Below, piece after piece: positions 7,638 through 27,121 of a DNA stretch of 48,821 nucleotides. Source of the stretch: an uncultured Alphaproteobacteria bacterium (GTDB taxonomy: Bacteria > Pseudomonadota > Alphaproteobacteria > Methylaequorales > Methylaequoraceae); NCBI GenBank assembly GCA_902542925.1, contig CACBWF010000002.1, positions 1 to 48,821 on the forward strand, written 5' to 3'. The notes under the pieces are model-generated. The model was given only the letters and a program-made list of their open reading frames with translations, was not told the DNA's origin and did no database searches. A program made the translations under genes and the position numbers. Every line of letters starts with the position of its first letter. The first letter of the stretch is position 1.

Positions 7638-7982
7638 ATGGATTGTAAAAAATTAAAACTTCTTCTACGGCAGTTTTCAAATGATAGAAAATGGAATAAA
7701 TTCCATACATTAAAAAACCTCGCATGTTCGATTAGTATTGAGTCAAGTGAATTGTTAGAATTATTTCAATGGGAGGATTTATCCAGTTTAGATAATAGAC
7801 AAAAAAAACTTAAAGAAAAAGTCTCTGATGAAGTTGCAGATATTATGCTATATTTGTTGAGATTTTCTGATTTGGCAGAAATAGATTTAGAAAAGGCTTG
7901 TTTTAAAAAAATTGAAAAGAATGAAAAAAAATATCCTGTAAATCTATCTAAAGGAAATTCCAAAAAATATACTGATCTGTGA
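7638..7982 (+). CDS. MazG-like nucleotide pyrophosphohydrolase (dCTP pyrophosphatase-like)
   Basis: 114-aa all-alpha protein with ESSELLELFQW ... EVADIMLYLL, characteristic of MazG/DCTPP1-type NTP-PPases. Confidence 0.78.
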   Translation: MDCKKLKLLLRQFSNDRKWNKFHTLKNLACSISIESSELLELFQWEDLSSLDNRQKKLKEKVSDEVADIMLYLLRFSDLAEIDLEKACFKKIEKNEKKYPVNLSKGNSKKYTDL

Positions 7983-8004
7983 TAATTTTTTTTGTGTTAA
8001 GGAT

Positions 8005-8094
8005 ATGAATAGAAAAATTACACAAAAACAAAAAGATGAGAAAAGGGCACAAGCTCTAAGAGAAAATCTTAAAAAACGAAAGAGAAAGAATTAA
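8005..8094 (+). CDS. Possible 29-aa basic micro-protein ([29 protein letters not shown])
   Basis: Not in the track. ATG at 8005 and TAA at 8092-8094; it fills the mazG-dcd spacer exactly, with dcd ATG at 8097. It resembles short ...ALRxNLxRRK... peptides I recall from alphaproteobacteria (memory only). The AAGGA is only 1 nt from the ATG, so the SD spacing is poor. Confidence 0.3.
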
Positions 8095-19083: not shown

Positions 19084-20910
19084 ATGTGCGGTATTTTTGG
19101 TATTGTAGGAGAAGATTCGATTGTAGAAAAGATCTTGGGTTCTTTGACTCGCTTGGAATACAGAGGCTATGATTCATCAGGAATTGCAATAAGTGATAGT
19201 GAAAAAAAGAAAATATTGTGTTTTCGAGCAGAAGGTAAACTTGAAAAACTTAAAAAGATTCTTAAAAATAAAAAAATTAATGGTCAAATAGGTATAGGTC
19301 ATACCCGTTGGGCTACTCATGGAGTTCCATCAGAAAAAAATGCTCACCCGCACTATACTGATTCAGTTGCAATTGTTCATAATGGTATTATTGAAAATTA
19401 TATTAAGCTTAAAAAAGAATTATCAGATAAAGGTTGCAAATTTAAATCTCAAACAGATAGTGAAGTTATTGCCCATTTACTTACACAATTTTTGAATAAA
19501 GGTTTAAATCCCCATGAGGCAATTAAGGAAACACTTCCAAAGTTAGAAGGTGCATTTGCATTGGCAATTTTATTTAGAGACCACAAAAAGCTTATAGGAG
19601 CAAGAAAAGGCAGCCCTCTGGCACTTGGAATATCTAAAAAAACTTTTTTTTTAGGATCAGACTCTATAGCAATTGCTCCTCACACCCAAAATATTTGTTA
19701 TCTTGATGAGGGTGATTGGGTTGAAATTAATAAAAGTAGTTTTAAGATTTATGATTCAAGTAATAATGAAGTTGACAGAGAAATTCAACTTACCTCTTAT
19801 AATAATAAGAATTCAGGGAAAGGTAATTTCAACCACTTTATGCAAAAAGAAATTTTTGAACAACCATCAGTTCTTGGAGATTCTTTATCACGATTTATAA
19901 ATCCAACACAAAAAACAATACAAATTCCTAATCTAAAACTTAATTGGAATAAGATAAAATCTATAAAATTTGTTGCATGTGGGACATCTTATTATGCATG
20001 TTTAGTAGCAACATATTGGTTTCAAAAATATTCAAAAATCCCTGCAGAAGCTGAGCTTGCATCTGAGTTCAGATATAAATCACAAATTAAACTTACAAGC
20101 CAACTTTGTGTTTTTATTTCCCAATCTGGTGAAACAGCAGACACTCTTGCTGCCCTAAGGCACGCCAAAAACCATAAAATGAAAATTTTAAGTATTGTCA
20201 ATGTAGTAGAAAGTAGTATCGCACGAGAATCAAATTTTGTACTTCCAACTGCTGCAGGCCCTGAAATAGGTGTTGCTTCAACAAAAGCATTAACTGCTCA
20301 GTTATGTGTTTTGTCGTGTCTATGTATTTTTATTTCCAAAAAAAAAAAAATTATTAGTAAATCAAATGAAGAAAAATTGACAAAAAGTATTATTGAGATT
20401 CCGTCAAAAATTTCTGAAGTATTAAAAAAAAATAAAAAAATAGAAAAAGTTTCAAAAGATATCTCAGTTGCTAAAAGTTGCTTATTTATAGGAAGAGGGG
20501 TGTGTTATCCAATTGCTCTAGAAGGAGCACTAAAATTAAAAGAAATTTCATATATACATGCTGAAGGTTATGCATCTGGTGAGATGAAACATGGCCCAAT
20601 TGCATTAATTGATAAAAAGATGCCTGTAGTTGCAATATGTCCCAAAAATTTTATCTTTGAGAAAAACCTTTCAAATATACAAGAAATTTTAGCAAGAGGG
20701 GGTAAAGTTTATGTGATCACTGATAAGAAAGGAGAAACCTACTTCAAAGATTTAAAGATAAAGAAACTAGTAATTCCTGATGTTGAGGAATTCGTCTCAC
20801 CAATCTTGTATTGTGTTCCAGTACAATTGTTGGCTTATTATGCTGCAGTTTTAAAAGGTACTGATGTAGATCAACCAAGAAATTTAGCAAAATCAGTAAC
20901 CGTGGAATGA
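19084..20910 (+). CDS. glmS: Glutamine--fructose-6-phosphate aminotransferase
   Basis: MCGIFG N-terminus, two SIS domains (SQSGETADT) and the universal C-terminus ...NLAKSVTVE*. Contains an A13 tract at 20338-20350. Confidence 0.97.
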   Translation: MCGIFGIVGEDSIVEKILGSLTRLEYRGYDSSGIAISDSEKKKILCFRAEGKLEKLKKILKNKKINGQIGIGHTRWATHGVPSEKNAHPHYTDSVAIVHNGIIENYIKLKKELSDKGCKFKSQTDSEVIAHLLTQFLNKGLNPHEAIKETLPKLEGAFALAILFRDHKKLIGARKGSPLALGISKKTFFLGSDSIAIAPHTQNICYLDEGDWVEINKSSFKIYDSSNNEVDREIQLTSYNNKNSGKGNFNHFMQKEIFEQPSVLGDSLSRFINPTQKTIQIPNLKLNWNKIKSIKFVACGTSYYACLVATYWFQKYSKIPAEAELASEFRYKSQIKLTSQLCVFISQSGETADTLAALRHAKNHKMKILSIVNVVESSIARESNFVLPTAAGPEIGVASTKALTAQLCVLSCLCIFISKKKKIISKSNEEKLTKSIIEIPSKISEVLKKNKKIEKVSKDISVAKSCLFIGRGVCYPIALEGALKLKEISYIHAEGYASGEMKHGPIALIDKKMPVVAICPKNFIFEKNLSNIQEILARGGKVYVITDKKGETYFKDLKIKKLVIPDVEEFVSPILYCVPVQLLAYYAAVLKGTDVDQPRNLAKSVTVE

Positions 20911-20913
20911 TTT
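20891..20913. repeat. Direct repeat copy 1 (authentic glmS 3' terminus)
   Basis: AATCAGTAACCGTGGAATGATTT. It matches 23245-23268 at 14/16 in the core, and GATTT follows after a 1-nt indel. Confidence 0.6.
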
Positions 20914-21233
20914 CGTTTTGTATGTATAGTTTTAGAGATTATACAAACATAACCCTCAGAATTCACTATAAGATATCAAAAATAAGACTGAATTCTTATC
21001 CATACTCTCCATATCAAAAAATGTTGATCGATAAGATTATTTTTTTCAGAGAATGTGGTCATACTTATAAAATGATAAGTCAATATTTTAATCAAATTAA
21101 TCTATTGAGTTATAGAGGAAAAAATTTTTCTCCAAGTTTAGTGTTTGAGTTAATAAAGAAATATAATAGACATTTAGAAAAGAATAAAAGTAAGTTAGGT
21201 GAAATAATAAGGAGTGAGTTGGTTTATGAGTAG
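20907..21233 (+). CDS. Small DNA-binding-like protein (108 aa) with a serine-recombinase 'Recombinase'-domain-type HTH
   Basis: Its ATG overlaps the glmS TGA (ATGA). The segment IIFFRECGHTYKMISQYFNQINLLSYRGKNFSPSLVFELIKKY resembles the G-x-S/T...IA..LN..GI.T.RGK.WS...V..IL pattern of recombinase DNA-binding modules. Confidence 0.5.
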   Translation: MISFCMYSFRDYTNITLRIHYKISKIRLNSYPYSPYQKMLIDKIIFFRECGHTYKMISQYFNQINLLSYRGKNFSPSLVFELIKKYNRHLEKNKSKLGEIIRSELVYE

Positions 21234-21303: not shown

Positions 21304-22263
21304 ATGGAACCTGAGAAAGTTTTAGATTTAGGAAGTAAATATTCCAAAAAGGATCTATCAAGTCTGTTAGATCAACCAAACCTTTCTTTTGTTCGGGAAG
21401 GAATTTTTAATTGTAAAAATTCTAGTTCATCACTTTTCTTTGTTGACCTTGAAAAAAAAGATAAAGAAAAGAAATTTCATTTTAATGATTTTTTTGAAGG
21501 AGATTTTTTTCATTGGGACTCTCAAACAACACAAAATATCGATAGTCCTAAAATACAAGAAATTGTGAGTGGAAATGTTACACCACATTTATTTGTAAGA
21601 GTTAATCCAAAAATTAAAAATGTAACTCTACCTTTTGTTTATTGTGGGAAGTTGATTTATCATTCTCATGAAGAAAAAACATCCAATCCTGTCCACATAA
21701 TATTTCAAAGTGTTGACTATGATGATTTTACTGAAAACGATGACCTAATTGATATTTACCTATGGAACCCATTAAAAATAGGAATGAAAACCAGTTCAAA
21801 AATATCAATGAAAGGGATTATTTCAGATAAAAGAAAAAAAGAATATAAAAAACCTGATAAGACTGAAAGAAAAGGAATGGTTACTTCAAGAGTTGGTCAA
21901 GGTTATTATAGACAACAAATAATAGACAAATGGAATGGAATGTGTCCAATTACAGGAATAGATATTAAATCCATTTTAATTTCATCTCATATTGTCCGTT
22001 GGTCAGAATCAACAGATAAAGAGAGATTAGATCCTGAGAATGGAATATTATTATCACCGATTTTTGACTCCCTTTTTGATAGATATTTAATTTCTTTTAA
22101 AGATAATGGTGAACTTTTGATTTCAAAAAAATTAAACCAAAAAAATGTGATAAAGTTAGGTCTAAGAAAAGATATAAAAATAAATGTTTCAAAAGGAATG
22201 ATTAAATATTTAATAAGACATAGAAAAAAATTTAATGAAAAAAATGAAATTAAAAATAATTGA
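21304..22263 (+). CDS. DUF3427-like N-terminal domain fused to an HNH_2-type endonuclease (candidate restriction/defence nuclease)
   Basis: 319 aa. The C-terminus SRVGQGYYRQQIIDKWNGMCPITG...SSHIVRWSES...DPENGILLSPIFDSLFDRYLISF matches the HNH_2 (PF13391-type) pattern R.GQ..FR...CaitG...AaHI.P...NGl.L....H.lFD. The N-terminus (LFFVDLEK...FHFNDFF.GDFFHWDSQTTQ...HLFVRV...PFVYCGKL) resembles DUF3427 as I recall it. Confidence 0.8.
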   Translation: MEPEKVLDLGSKYSKKDLSSLLDQPNLSFVREGIFNCKNSSSSLFFVDLEKKDKEKKFHFNDFFEGDFFHWDSQTTQNIDSPKIQEIVSGNVTPHLFVRVNPKIKNVTLPFVYCGKLIYHSHEEKTSNPVHIIFQSVDYDDFTENDDLIDIYLWNPLKIGMKTSSKISMKGIISDKRKKEYKKPDKTERKGMVTSRVGQGYYRQQIIDKWNGMCPITGIDIKSILISSHIVRWSESTDKERLDPENGILLSPIFDSLFDRYLISFKDNGELLISKKLNQKNVIKLGLRKDIKINVSKGMIKYLIRHRKKFNEKNEIKNN

Positions 22264-22583
22264 AAAGTATAATGTGGGTATTTCTAAATAATTCTTTTTT
22301 ATCAATAGTTGAAAATAGAAATAATAAAGATGAGTTATTAGTTCGTTCAAGAATAAAAGGGGATATAGAAAAAGTTTTCCCAGACTCTGATGTGTTTGAA
22401 ATGGAAAATTCAGATTATAAGTATCGGTCTTATATAAAAAAAACTAATGTATCCAATAAACTTAAAAATATTGTAGAAGGTATTACTTATGATAATTTTA
22501 AAAATTCTATTCCCTCTGATCAATCAGAAAGACATCACTCGTACTTGAATGTTTGGACTGAATTAAGAAAGTTACAAAAATGA
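22260..22583 (+). CDS. Hypothetical protein (103-107 aa)
   Basis: TTG 22260 overlaps the nuclease TGA (TTGA); an alternative ATG is at 22272. The sequence ...FLSIVENRNNKDELLVRSRIKGDIEKVFPDSDVFE...DYKYRSYI...ITYDNFKNS... looks globular. No motif I can name. Confidence 0.55.
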   Translation: MKSIMWVFLNNSFLSIVENRNNKDELLVRSRIKGDIEKVFPDSDVFEMENSDYKYRSYIKKTNVSNKLKNIVEGITYDNFKNSIPSDQSERHHSYLNVWTELRKLQK

Positions 22584-22660
22584 AAAAATTTGATCAACCT
22601 ACAAACTTTGTAAACTTTTTGACTGTCGAGTAGATTTGAAAAGTGAAAAGACTATGATTC

Positions 22661-22999
22661 TTATTCTTTTTCTTTATCAAAGTCTAAAAAATAACAATAC
22701 ATATTTTCTATAAACTCATGATTACTTAAGATTTCAGTCTTATTTTTTTTAGTTTTAACTACTAATTCATATATTTTATTTTTATGAGAAAAAAAAATTA
22801 CTTTTTCATTCTCTATGTAAACTTTGTCACGATTATCTGTACTTAAATAACTATGAATAATTTTTCCGTTATTAAAGTATTCTGAACATTTTTTCATTGA
22901 TATTTCTTTACCAGAATAATATTTCGTCTGAAATTCTTCTTCAGAATTCACTTCAAAAAATATAAATATACAAACCAGTATGATTAATAATTTTTTCAT
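22661..22999 (-). CDS. Exported small protein (112 aa), paralogue of 26207-26638
   Basis: Signal peptide MKKLLIILVCIFIFFEVNS and SD GAGGGA 7 nt upstream. It shares K-x-C-x2-YF-x2-GK-x-I-x2-Y, FS...K.Y.L and C...DFDK blocks with the 26207 ORF. Confidence 0.6.
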   Translation of the reverse strand: MKKLLIILVCIFIFFEVNSEEEFQTKYYSGKEISMKKCSEYFNNGKIIHSYLSTDNRDKVYIENEKVIFFSHKNKIYELVVKTKKNKTEILSNHEFIENMYCYFLDFDKEKE

Positions 23000-23244: not shown

Positions 23245-23268
23245 AATCGGTCACCGTGGAGAAGATTT
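23245..23268. repeat. Direct repeat copy 2 (orphan, degenerate glmS 3' terminus)
   Basis: AATCGGTCACCGTGGAGAAGATTT. In the glmS-equivalent frame it reads TCG GTC ACC GTG GAG = SVTVE, with every difference at a third codon position. It is preceded by an in-frame TAA and is not part of any ORF. Confidence 0.6.
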
Positions 23269-23654: not shown

Positions 23655-23894
23655 ATGATCAAAAAATGTAAATATCTCTTAGTTTCATTTATATTTATTT
23701 TTTTATTTTTAAAAGATAAAGAATCTCTTAGTAAAAAAGTTGTTAATGTTTACGATAAAGTTTTTGAATGCAAGTTTCCAAAAAATTCATTTGAAAGAAT
23801 GAGAGGTGTAAGAACACGTATTTGTATTTTAGATGAAGAGGATAATAAAATAATTAATAAAATAAGAAAAAAGAAAAAAAATTTGAAAAGATAG
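23655..23894 (+). CDS. Small exported/membrane-anchored hypothetical protein (79 aa)
   Basis: N-terminal hydrophobic segment KYLLVSFIFIFLFL, two Cys and a Lys-rich tail. No motif recognised. Confidence 0.4.
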   Translation: MIKKCKYLLVSFIFIFLFLKDKESLSKKVVNVYDKVFECKFPKNSFERMRGVRTRICILDEEDNKIINKIRKKKKNLKR

Positions 23895-25130: not shown

Positions 25131-25153
25131 CTATCCAAAAAAGTTATTGCTAA

Positions 25154-25924
25154 CTAACCTTTTCTTTTGCAAGGAAACGGATATGTTATTGTACCTTCCT
25201 TAAAAGTTTTATTTTTTTCAAAACATGAAATTTGGTTTGGCCCATTTGACCAGTAATCATGGGGGTTAAGAGAACTGTAGTAATCTTTAATAAAATATTT
25301 GCACCCCCAATTATCTTTTTCACTTTTTTCACAATATCTTTGACCAATTTGAAGATGCAGATGACGCACTCTAGCCATACATCTATATTTCACATTTTTT
25401 GGAAGTTTTGCTATTAAATCTCCCCTTTTAACTTGTTGATTTTCTTCAACCAAAAATTCTCCAACATGTCCATAAATTACAATTAAATTCTTACCGTCAA
25501 AAGATTTACCATGATCGATTATAACTGTGGCTCCCCAGCAATCTTCAACTGTTGTTTCAAGAACTACACCATCAGCAATAGCAATGATTTTTTGATTCTC
25601 AGAGCCAATTATGTCTATGCCTTGATGAATAGTGTCACGAGGTCTGGTATTAACCCCATTCATACTTCCAAAATCTGAAAGTATAGGATTAGCTTCAAAT
25701 CCTTGCGGACTTACATCCTTTGCATAAGTCTTACAATATTCATAAACCCTTACATATTCACCTTTATATGTAGGATGGCGCTCGTACCATTCGAGAGCAT
25801 TTTTACATTGAAGTGGAATATTGTTAAGATTTTTCATATTGTTTTTCTCTAAGTCTTTTGATGATAAATCAAAGGTAATTAATATCAGTGATATGTGAAA
25901 CAATAATGAATAAAAAGAGTACAT
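25154..25924 (-). CDS. Exported M23/LytM-family metallopeptidase
   Basis: Signal-like N-terminus; HQGIDI (HxxxD), GHVGEF and HLHLQI (HxH). Eight Cys suggest periplasmic disulfides. Confidence 0.88.
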   Translation of the reverse strand: MYSFYSLLFHISLILITFDLSSKDLEKNNMKNLNNIPLQCKNALEWYERHPTYKGEYVRVYEYCKTYAKDVSPQGFEANPILSDFGSMNGVNTRPRDTIHQGIDIIGSENQKIIAIADGVVLETTVEDCWGATVIIDHGKSFDGKNLIVIYGHVGEFLVEENQQVKRGDLIAKLPKNVKYRCMARVRHLHLQIGQRYCEKSEKDNWGCKYFIKDYYSSLNPHDYWSNGPNQISCFEKNKTFKEGTITYPFPCKRKG

Positions 25925-26070
25925 TGGATTTATTTTTTATTAATATAATATATATGCTTCTATTTTTCAAAGAAAAGCATTTTATTGTCATTATTGCGAT
26001 AATTTTTTTTTTATGTGATACAAAGATATTATTATGATTTTTAATATAATCTTAATGGAGAAATAATATT

Positions 26071-26250
26071 ATGATGAAAGTAAATATTGGTTTATTTGGA
26101 ATTATTCTTATTATATTTTTTAATCTATATCTTTTTTTTGACTTGAAATCAAAAAACCAACAAATAAACGAACAACTCCTCATTATTAAAAGTATTTTAG
26201 AGGATATTGATGATGATATTCACGAAATTGAAAAAAAAATTGAAAAATAA
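26071..26250 (+). CDS. Possible 59-aa single-TM protein with an acidic amphipathic tail
   Basis: Not in the track. GGAG lies 8-10 nt upstream of ATG 26071. The peptide is MMKVNIGLFGIILIIFFNLYLFFDLKSKNQQINEQLLIIKSILEDIDDDIHEIEKKIEK. It overlaps the annotated start of the next ORF in another frame. Confidence 0.35.
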   Translation: MMKVNIGLFGIILIIFFNLYLFFDLKSKNQQINEQLLIIKSILEDIDDDIHEIEKKIEK

Positions 26251-26638
26251 AAGTTTACAATTTAAGGATTTTAAATTTTTTTTCTCAAAAAAACTATGTA
26301 TTATTTTTGTAAATATCCTATGGGTTTTAACACCTAATTTATTACTTTCTGGTTATAATGAAATTGAGGAAAATGTTTTAGTTAAAGATTGTTTAAGATA
26401 TTTCGAGAAAGGTAAATTAATTAATAATTATTCAAATAGATATTCAATCGGAAAAGGTCTAGAGCGATCAGATGAATATTACGAATTTTCATATCTTGGT
26501 AAATATTATAACCTGTTTTTTGGATACAAAATTTTTGACAAAAATTTTAAGTATATTGAGAGCTCTGAATGTATCACAATAGATTTTGACAAAAACAATA
26601 AAAATATTAATGATAGAGATAGAGATAAAAAATTTTGA
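26207..26638 (+). CDS. Exported small protein, paralogue of 22661-22999
   Basis: Signal-like KKLCIIFVNILWVLTPNLLLSG. It shares the KDCLRYFEKGKLINNY, FSYLGKYYNLFF and ECITIDFDKNNK blocks with the other copy. The true start is probably downstream of 26207 (in-frame TTG codons at 26225 and 26240). Confidence 0.55.
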   Translation: MMMIFTKLKKKLKNKSLQFKDFKFFFSKKLCIIFVNILWVLTPNLLLSGYNEIEENVLVKDCLRYFEKGKLINNYSNRYSIGKGLERSDEYYEFSYLGKYYNLFFGYKIFDKNFKYIESSECITIDFDKNNKNINDRDRDKKF

Positions 26639-26674
26639 TATTAAATTTCTACAATTTAAATTAAAGGAGATAAA

Positions 26675-27121
26675 ATGCTAAATGTTTACTTATCTGGTGA
26701 AATTCATACAGATTGGAGAAATCAAATAATAAAACTTTGTAAAGATGAAAAATTGGATATTAAATTTTCATCACCAATTACTAATCATGATTTTTCTGAT
26801 AATTGTGGTGTTGAAATTCTTGGGGATGAAGAAAGAAGATTTTGGAAAGATAATAAAGGTGCAAAAATAAATTCAATAAAAACAAAAAAGTCAATAAAAG
26901 ATTCGGATGTTGTCATAGTAAAATTTGGAGAAAAGTATAAACAATGGAATGCTGCCTTTGATGCTGGTTATGCCTCTGCGTTAAATAAATCAATTATAGT
27001 TATTCATAGTGACGAACATCAACACGCCCTGAAAGAAGTAGATGCTTTTGCGTCCGCTGTTGCAAAAGATCAAGAACAGGTTGTTAGAATTTTGAAATAT
27101 GTTATACATGGTTCTTTGTAA
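26675..27121 (+). CDS. YtoQ-family protein (nucleoside 2-deoxyribosyltransferase-like fold)
   Basis: 148 aa. The N-terminal VYLSGEIHTDWRNQI and overall length match the YtoQ family as I recall it. AAGGAGA SD upstream. Confidence 0.75.
   Translation: MLNVYLSGEIHTDWRNQIIKLCKDEKLDIKFSSPITNHDFSDNCGVEILGDEERRFWKDNKGAKINSIKTKKSIKDSDVVIVKFGEKYKQWNAAFDAGYASALNKSIIVIHSDEHQHALKEVDAFASAVAKDQEQVVRILKYVIHGSL

Follow-up and report, generated by a model that had tools for sequence, protein, structure and literature searches.

Downstream of glmS in a contig of an uncultured alphaproteobacterium (CACBWF010000002.1 of assembly GCA_902542925.1; its positions 1 to 48,821, read on the forward strand, are hereafter called the window), three genes, referred to as ORF108, the nuclease gene and ORF107, form a cassette of about 1.7 kb. 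The subject of this analysis is the product of the nuclease gene, a protein of 319 amino acids (aa), for which an earlier note made from the DNA letters alone had proposed the fusion of a DUF3427-like sensor domain to an HNH_2 nuclease and a role as type IV-like restriction or defence enzyme. The gene resides in a stretch with a G + C content of 22–27% that starts after glmS and is rich in miniature open reading frames (ORFs). ORFs were scanned between 10.5 and 34.9 kb of the window; outside this islet, every scanned ORF with a Pfam hit is a housekeeping gene (e.g., those coding for HisD, Maf, Sua5, GlmU, GlmS, CysS and DAHP synthase), and a number of small ORFs gave no hit. No methyltransferase domain was found in the ORFs scanned in this region, in agreement with the earlier statement that a cognate methyltransferase is lacking nearby, and no helicase was found among those near the nuclease gene.

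With respect to its domain content, the 319 aa protein consists of DUF3427 and HNH_2 only in a Pfam scan, and in the hidden Markov model searches that had been proposed for it both domains are significant and exceed their gathering thresholds. DUF3427 (PF11907) matches residues 6–125 (nucleotides (nt) 21319–21678) with E = 4.4e-16 and 59.4 bits at a cut-off of 27.7, the match spanning positions 126–248 of the 280 profile positions, i.e., the C-terminal half of the model only. HNH_2 (PF13391) matches residues 214–266 (nt 21943–22101) with E = 7.6e-12 and 45.4 bits at a cut-off of 21. All motifs quoted in favour of the fusion are present, namely FVDL (residues 46–49), FHWDSQ (69–74), LFVRV (96–100) and FVYCG (111–115) on the DUF3427 side, and GQGYYRQQ (198–205), CPITG (214–218), SSHIVRW (227–233) and ENGILLSPIFDSLFD (245–259) on the HNH side. 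In addition, HNH models of PADLOC match the protein (best E = 1.4e-26), and NCBIfam models of restriction enzymes match over the HNH part, all of them below threshold.

As judged from homology, the C-terminal part is an HNH nuclease with intact catalytic residues. It matches VcaM4I (entry 6yex of the PDB) with E = 9.4e-24 in phmmer and E = 7e-38 with a profile, and in this alignment H229, N246, D255 and D259 coincide with H224, N241, D250 and D254 of VcaM4I, which have been tested by mutation (PMC7897488). All four positions are invariant or at least 90% conserved across 29 homologues. Since the matching HNH domain of VcaM4I dimerises (PMC7897488), the window protein may be expected to dimerise via its HNH domains as well.

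As to the N-terminal part, the earlier note had described DUF3427 as a domain without assigned activity, which is contradicted by the literature. It was named already in 2011 as the presumed specificity domain for 5-methylcytosine (5mC) and 5-hydroxymethylcytosine (5hmC) of the type IV enzyme SauUSI (PMC3141236), and in a crystal structure from 2021 residues 806–953 of SauUSI, its target-recognition domain, show an SRA fold (PMC7913695). In line with this, the structure prediction of the N-terminus and its comparison with modified-base readers, as suggested at the outset, returned SRA domains and modification-dependent restriction enzymes. In particular, an AlphaFold2 (AF2) model of the monomer built on 29 homologues (mean predicted local distance difference test, pLDDT, 87.9; predicted template modelling score, pTM, 0.80) gave four Foldseek hits against the PDB with E ≤ 0.001, from VcaM4I (EVE-HNH, 1e-10), TagI (SRA-HNH, 8e-7) and SauUSI (7clg, 3e-4). 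The subsequent hits are nearly all SRA domains or 5hmC-specific enzymes, amongst them the SRA domain of SUVH6 with methylated DNA (E = 1e-3), AbaSI, KRYPTONITE, UHRF1/2 and PvuRts1I. This supports, at the level of a predicted structure, an SRA/PUA-like fold of the reader domain which would be able to hold a flipped modified base. At the sequence level, direct searches of the PDB with the single protein or a full-length profile reached VcaM4I only and not SauUSI; a profile of 33 N-domains that includes distant ones matches the SauUSI recognition domain (7clg residues 802–912) with E = 7e-9. As the SRA-fold domain of SauUSI comprises residues 806–953, the part of DUF3427 matched here should be the one with the SRA fold.

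In the SauUSI structure, a flipped 5mC was modelled into a pocket lined by Y831, F841, I842 and W868, with D858 reading the base and M829 plugging the gap left in the duplex (PMC7913695). Mapped onto these positions, G33, F46, V47, D62 and W71 of the window protein correspond to G830, F841, I842, D858 and W868, respectively. G33, D62 and W71 are invariant in the 33 N-domains, F46 and V47 are conserved at 90% or more, and four of the six SauUSI pocket residues (M829, Y831, F841, I842, D858 and W868) are retained in the window protein as F46, V47, D62 and W71, the other two being different (see below).

The fold, the profile match, the catalytic residues and the gene neighbourhoods described below all back the proposal of a single-polypeptide, type IV-like enzyme that combines a modified-base reader with an HNH nuclease, as far as a predicted structure and homology can. 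The nuclease gene is thus read here as probably (at a probability of roughly 0.75) coding for an ATP-independent single-protein type IV restriction endonuclease that would cut DNA containing modified cytosine. According to this reading, the SRA-like domain would flip a modified cytosine out of incoming duplex DNA; by analogy with SauUSI and the enzymes of the McaZI group (see below), this would most probably be 5hmC or 5mC, or else a derivative of these. In the pocket, D62 would form hydrogen bonds with the base, W71 would stack on it, and F46 and V47 would provide a hydrophobic wall. The HNH domains would dimerise as in VcaM4I and TagI and introduce a double-strand break near the modified site, with H229 acting as general base and D255 and D259 holding the metal. 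The host genome would be spared if it does not carry the mark, and a methyltransferase partner would not be required.

Comparisons with enzymes of known function show that both halves of the protein have precedents in other combinations. In the enzymes McaZI, BwiMMI and EfaL9I, which have the architecture DUF3427-DUF3883, Lutz et al. demonstrated in 2019 binding to 5mC- and 5hmC-containing DNA, restriction of phage T4gt and poor cleavage in vitro (PMC6765204). This McaZI group has the same type of reader, and the closest non-HNH relatives of the window N-domain share the exact McaZI architecture; like the window protein, the members of the group are single polypeptides of about 300–340 aa without helicase. 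In contrast, their nuclease is of the PD-(D/E)XK type (DUF3883/NOV_C) and not a beta-beta-alpha-Me HNH nuclease, and the tested enzymes are often encoded near methyltransferases or a DUF2075 NTPase, neither of which is found near the window gene. In turn, VcaM4I and TspA15I (EVE-HNH) as well as TagI and ScoA3IV (SRA-HNH; PDB 6yex and 6ghs) have the same layout of reader, helical linker and C-terminal HNH domain and likewise lack a cognate methyltransferase. The window reader, however, is of the DUF3427/SauUSI-type SRA-like kind and neither EVE nor a canonical SAD/SRA domain, and PDB sequence searches gave no sequence-level match of the window protein to the N-domains of this class. With SauUSI from Staphylococcus aureus (PDB 7CLG) the recognition domain is shared, and homologues of both proteins are linked to a MutT/NUDIX gene; in contrast to the window protein, SauUSI is 953 aa long and contains a PLD nuclease, a superfamily 2 (SF2) helicase/translocase and a helical coupler. 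Because these three modules are missing, the window protein should cut without ATP or DNA translocation. From these module combinations it can be regarded as a relative of the McaZI group with an exchanged nuclease, and of VcaM4I and TagI with an exchanged reader.

The fusion had been considered uncharacterised, which stands insofar as no tested member was found in the literature mentioning DUF3427. It does not stand with respect to prediction, since the co-occurrence of DUF3427 and HNH_2 was noted in silico by Jablonska et al. in 2017 together with a predicted role in restriction (PMC5714182). DUF3427-HNH proteins also fell within the scope of the screen from 2019, which tested DUF3427-PD-(D/E)XK enzymes only (PMC6765204). 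The window protein is predicted to be a new representative of an enzyme class already known and not a new kind of system; it is raised somewhat above routine by the sharply bounded and recently exchanged glmS cassette, its presence in marine metagenome runs of many studies, the NUDIX link shared with SauUSI and the altered pocket. That SAR11-type genomes are nearly devoid of defence systems, which would have made the enzyme notable according to the earlier note, is outdated, as a survey from 2026 found such systems in about a third of the cultured SAR11 strains; HNH or type IV enzymes are not mentioned in it (PMC13712998).

The family to which the protein belongs is large and patchily distributed. 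A word-seeded search retrieved 869 homologues, of which the best 120 are 312–333 aa long, 61–100% identical and contain both domains, and an exhaustive search of 1.84 billion cluster representatives gave about 80 clusters at E ≤ 1e-30. N-domains with 38–46% identity are fused to NOV_C/DUF3883, a PD-(D/E)XK nuclease (e.g., P0177 and P0186), and the HNH half is also found behind GIY-YIG, Myb/GcrA-like or unassigned N-termini. In a scan with one genome per species yielding 55 loci (these and further loci are designated by L numbers in the following), full-length or nearly full-length copies with 49–100% identity are present in marine alphaproteobacterial single-cell genomes, Methylophilaceae and Rhodospirillaceae, in Flavobacteriaceae, Marinilabilia, Aquimarina, Chitinophaga, Pedobacter and Mucilaginibacter, and in Dehalococcoidia, Gammaproteobacteria and Rhodothermales. 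In hosts with a higher G + C content, the nuclease gene lies 10–16 G + C points below its flanks. A phage origin was considered and discarded, as 2.9 million viral contigs yielded no full-length homologue and PHROGs matched the HNH part only, and weakly.

Some of these copies are decaying. In other genomes, about eight homologues have been split, truncated or interrupted by stop codons, with broken copies located at L026:6001-6958, L028:6001-6943, L034:6043-6930, L035:6001-6736, L037:6001-6303, L045:6001-6923 and L030:6001-6750, and the copy in L012, a marine alphaproteobacterial single-cell genome, has a shortened C-terminus owing to a deletion of 14 nt. The sizeable share of broken homologues suggests frequent loss of function in this gene family, and no RNA run containing the sequence was found. 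Both observations would fit an inactive or decaying passenger, i.e., an intact-looking ORF without present function in its host. This is very unlikely for the window copy, which has its full length and retains all catalytic residues and those of the pocket, and whose ratio of non-synonymous to synonymous substitution rates (dN/dS) is 0.064 when compared with a 95% identical copy in L011 and 0.09–0.17 when compared with copies of about 70% protein identity; the gene is evolving under purifying selection. In addition, the exact protein is present in 38 contig-index blocks, and at least 11 studies contributed marine metagenome runs that contain its DNA.

The genes adjoining the homologues, which were looked at as had been suggested (26 contexts, with no matched background), include both defence and mobility genes. 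The commonest neighbour is a small NUDIX gene, present in 9 of 20 surveyed loci plus L001, which overlaps the nuclease stop codon in the eight copies inspected. Its product is MutT/NudG-like, the best NCBIfam models being 'pyrimidine (deoxy)nucleoside triphosphate diphosphatase' and MutT, neither of which reaches its cut-off, and it matches the PADLOC phage-defence candidate PDC-S07 with E values of 1e-31 to 1e-48. Xu et al. reported 60 or more genomes in which SauUSI-like genes are linked to a gene of the MutT/NUDIX type (PMC3141236). As the NUDIX partner tracks the DUF3427 reader across two nuclease architectures, the reader arguably does the same job in both. Other neighbours code for HIT proteins, ResIII, DpdF-like and Schlafen-type helicases, PDC-M60A, integrases and resolvases; the 25 families seen most often as neighbours at 20 loci do not include methyltransferases. 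In L001 and L014, genes of the HIT family occupy a place similar to that of the NUDIX gene.

With NUDIX and HIT proteins, the nuclease is frequently accompanied by enzymes of nucleotide-pool 'house-cleaning', which also serves the avoidance of damage. Such partners would be compatible with a nuclease that reads an unusual base in the DNA of its own host, either as an addiction-type, post-segregational toxin stabilising the cassette or in the processing of lesions. At a distance of 2.3 kb there is a gene for an SRAP abasic-site protein, and the HNH domain of VcaM4I alone is a toxic non-specific nuclease (PMC7897488). However, the SRAP gene is located outside the cassette, every close relative in structure or sequence whose function is known is either a restriction enzyme or a reader of 5mC, the nuclease gene is patchily distributed, has moved horizontally and is often broken, unlike a repair gene, and ORF107, the sole antitoxin candidate of the cassette, is also found where the nuclease is missing, which makes a role as toxin or repair nuclease unlikely.

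Several points nevertheless weigh against a modified-cytosine-dependent restriction endonuclease. The assignment of function to DUF3427-HNH proteins rests on homology, no biochemical or genetic test of any of them having been found in the literature mentioning DUF3427, and the tested DUF3427-PD-(D/E)XK relatives cut very little or not at all in vitro despite restricting T4gt. In the pocket, Y831 of SauUSI, which contacts the methyl group, is replaced by I34, and M829, which fills the gap in the duplex, by E32; furthermore, the reader has a conserved HWDSQ motif of its own clade, in which S73 is invariant. These differences suggest that the base being read may be neither 5mC nor 5hmC. The neighbourhood survey is small and lacks a matched background. 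Finally, host DNA would have to be compatible with the predicted nuclease, for which indirect support comes from a single observation, namely that SAR11 methylomes are reported to show N6-methyladenine (m6A) at GAWTC (PMC8919816).

The borders of the cassette became evident by comparison with a second genome followed by a scan for the glmS end (Table 1). GlmS and GlmU encoded in L012 are only 61% and 50% identical, respectively, to the window proteins, and the nucleotide identity to L012 is 55–81% across glmS, rises to 99–100% at the stop codon of this gene (20910) and stays at this level until about 22640, where it drops sharply. Exactly at the end of this identity, the last 45 nt of glmS recur in decayed form, in line with the claim of a repeat-bounded islet: the glmS end reads GTAGATCAACCAAGAAATTTAGCAAAATCAGTAACCGTGGAATGA and the copy at the cassette end TTTGATCAACCTACAAACTTTGTAAACTTTTTGACTGTCGAGTAG. 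With 28 matches over 45 nt, the count for the window copy is no better than the best shuffled match, and its support comes from its position and from equivalent copies elsewhere. Such copies are found in L012 at 7272 and 8721, in L045 at 6961 and 7370, in L011 at 7705 and 8760 (35/45 and 34/45 matches) and, in the unrelated L009 with 54% G + C, directly after the nuclease gene (31/45 matches vs. a null maximum of 24). The string GTNACCGTGGA occurs in the window at 20896 and 23250 only, compared to an expected number of 0.41, and the shorter remnant at the second of these places probably closes an older cassette holding the minus-strand ORF 22661-22999. A generic repeat search over 19–30 kb returned AT-rich low-complexity pairs only. 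Boundaries and repeats together suggest that the islet is a site-specifically integrated cassette of about 1.7 kb which rebuilds the end of glmS.

Table 1. Features of the nuclease gene, its domains and the glmS cassette in the window, and NUDIX genes at other loci
Feature	Position	Strand	Remarks
Nuclease ORF	21304..22263	+	319 aa, ATG start; one intact ORF; DUF3427 + HNH_2
SRA-like reader domain (predicted)	21304..21783	+	residues 1 to ~160; fold search and profile match to SauUSI
Reader pocket (putative)	D62, nt 21487-21489; W71, nt 21514-21516; also G33, F46, V47	+	mapping onto SauUSI
HNH nuclease domain	21853..22227	+	residues 184-308; VcaM4I match
Catalytic residues (by homology)	H229 (nt 21988-21990), N246, D255, D259	+	aligned with VcaM4I
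Left attachment site, last 45 nt of glmS (VDQPRNLAKSVTVE*)	20866..20910	+	crossover within roughly the last 15-20 nt
ORF108, first cassette gene	20907..21233	+	ATG overlaps glmS stop codon; in the block 99-100% identical to L012
ORF107, last cassette gene	22260..22583	+	probable ATG at 22272, 103 aa; in the block 99-100% identical to L012
Decayed copy of glmS 3' end, right attachment site, cassette end	22589..22633	+	28/45 matches; edge of L012 identity
Shorter remnant of glmS 3' end (AATCGGTCACCGTGGAGAAGATTT)	23245..23268	+	read directly from sequence
NUDIX gene, L015	6914-7276
NUDIX gene, L020	6911-7285
NUDIX gene, L022	6861-7256
NUDIX gene, L023	6917-7339
NUDIX gene, L027	6920-7297
NUDIX gene, L028	6889-7302
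NUDIX gene, L029	6923-7315
NUDIX gene, L001	10932-11315

The transfer of the cassette between diverged lineages is recent. Ten metagenomic contigs coding for the exact protein carry it with 97.3–99.7% identity, and glmS, where present on these contigs, is only 67–71% identical to that of the window over long alignments; the housekeeping proteins of the host, a low-GC marine alphaproteobacterium, are 50–75% identical to those of the genomes of SAR11 size that share the cassette. A check for excision and empty sites in the Logan contigs of four marine runs returned pieces of the region that are too short to interpret, and in a scan for promoters and terminators such sites were no more frequent than in shuffled sequence.

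In the proposed mechanism, site-specific recombination would insert the cassette into the final codons of glmS, which would thereby receive a replacement end. The initial gene of the cassette, ORF108, always is the first gene after a copy of the glmS end, its start overlapping the stop codon, and codes for a small helical protein resembling helix-turn-helix (HTH) proteins (AF2 pLDDT 74, three-helix bundle). Its only HMM matches are weak ('Recombinase' domain of serine recombinases, PF07508, E = 0.12; CcrB, E = 0.002), and a fold search gave no hit with an E value below 0.9. Members of the family share the motif G.xYxKIS..LN....T.RGK.F and are found at L011:5604-5927 and 7746-8069, L009:6563-6913, L019:3824-4204 and L020:5626-5940, with relatives adjoining glmS and/or the nuclease gene in L009, L019, L020, L001 and L031. 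In L011 there are two ORF108 cassettes, each after its own copy of the glmS end, the second of which is without nuclease; the insertion of cassettes hence does not seem to need the nuclease. No recognisable recombinase gene is present in the window cassette, a resolvase follows an ORF108-like gene in L001, and in L004 and L006 the nuclease gene has tyrosine integrases at its flanks. Together with the nuclease-free cassette in L011, this suggests that the nuclease is cargo and that the recombinase probably acts in trans.

The lack of a recombinase in the cassette could also be explained by a homing-type selfish nuclease, in which the HNH domain would cut the empty site at the glmS 3' end and repair would copy the cassette in. 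HNH enzymes are common among homing nucleases, and homologues of the nuclease gene are located directly downstream of glmS in 13 loci from several phyla. However, the copy of about 45 nt of the glmS end that is duplicated at the far junction speaks for conservative site-specific recombination and not for the repair of a break, an ORF108 cassette without nuclease occupies the same kind of site in L011, many homologues reside elsewhere, beside tyrosine integrases or in unrelated contexts, and the N-domain is a predicted reader of flipped bases with the SauUSI pocket and not a module for binding long DNA sites. Free-standing homing endonucleases leave no target duplication and their mobility depends on the nuclease; neither is seen here, and homing is considered highly improbable.

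Amongst known mobile elements, cassettes moved by recombinases at the 3' ends of conserved genes, such as the staphylococcal cassette chromosome (SCC) elements moved by Ccr serine recombinases, offer the closest likeness to a cassette integrated by site-specific recombination, as they also insert site-specifically at a conserved gene end, which is regenerated, leave the old end as a decayed repeat and stack in tandem. In contrast to them, the glmS cassette has no recombinase gene inside and is only about 1.7 kb long. Tn7 also inserts downstream of glmS, generating a duplication of 5 bp and carrying tns genes; neither of these is seen in the glmS cassette.

Tandem cassettes with differing cargo are found downstream of glmS at L011:5607-8804 and L012:5607-8765, with two copies of the glmS end each. 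The cargo comprises an exported mini-protein of 88 aa in L011 and ORFs of 257 aa and 118 aa in L012, and the tandem layout resembles an array of captured cassettes. In a contig from Tara (L088:2033-3506), the same cassette as in the window is followed by a gene for an N6_N4 methyltransferase and a neighbour of 239 aa on the opposite strand, which may form a type II restriction-modification pair in the next slot.

The last gene of the cassette, ORF107, belongs to a family of 243 members of about 103 aa without Pfam domain. It occupies the position of the NUDIX gene, which is absent from the window cassette. A function as dedicated partner or immunity protein of the nuclease was ruled out, since the family also occurs without it (L098:5001-5312, L100:5001-5312 and L102:5001-5306). 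The contexts of nuclease-free members include a glmS islet with a gene for an MwoI_N-domain protein and an island with SLFN_AlbA_2, AlpA, HATPase_c_3 and SNF2 genes.

A few further observations concern the surroundings of the cassette. An inverted repeat of 21 nt (20978–20998 and 22727–22747, AAAAATAAGACTGAATTCTTA and TAAGATTTCAGTCTTATTTTT, 95% complementary) has one arm inside ORF108 and the other past the right end of the cassette; it is not found in other loci, and its length is about at the limit expected by chance according to a rough estimate from base composition. Past the islet, the first conserved sequences are the genes for an M23 peptidase and a YtoQ-type nucleoside deoxyribosyltransferase (window 25142–27121 vs. 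L011:9265-10621, 75–80% nucleotide identity), which also follow the islet in L098 and L099, and this pair appears to mark its right-hand boundary to the core genome. A family of proteins of about 80 aa with the motif Y.CKSPKNSFERTRGVRNRI is encoded in the window (23655–23894), in L011 (8801–9043) and in L012 (8762–8914); in the latter two, the start of the gene and the last copy of the glmS end overlap, and the window member has no such copy directly before it.

If the reading of the protein as a modified-cytosine-dependent restriction endonuclease is confirmed, it would to our knowledge be the first DUF3427-HNH enzyme with an assigned function, linking SauUSI, the McaZI group and VcaM4I/TagI in a set of enzymes whose reader and nuclease modules are apparently freely exchanged. 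As a compact ATP-independent enzyme dependent on modified cytosine, it might possibly be useful in epigenetic mapping. The recurrent NUDIX partner makes a link between restriction and the cleaning of the nucleotide pool testable. More speculatively, and with considerable doubt as to the whole of the following scenario, the nuclease gene may be one of the cargoes of an integron-like capture platform at the glmS 3' end, where small defence cassettes would be exchanged among diverged streamlined ocean bacteria by means of a recombinase supplied in trans. In view of I34, E32 and the HWDSQ motif, its reader might sense a hypermodified cytosine of the kind typical for phages of the sea instead of plain 5mC or 5hmC, with a NudG-like NUDIX protein clearing the matching modified deoxynucleoside triphosphate in many genomes. 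For these abundant, streamlined and AT-rich marine bacteria, the cassette means that they carry and exchange what is predicted to be a restriction gene on 1.7 kb at glmS, near-identical cassettes being present in lineages with housekeeping genes only 60–75% identical. Its exchange among such lineages would suggest that modified DNA is in use among their phages, and that the movement of defence genes extends to minimal genomes.

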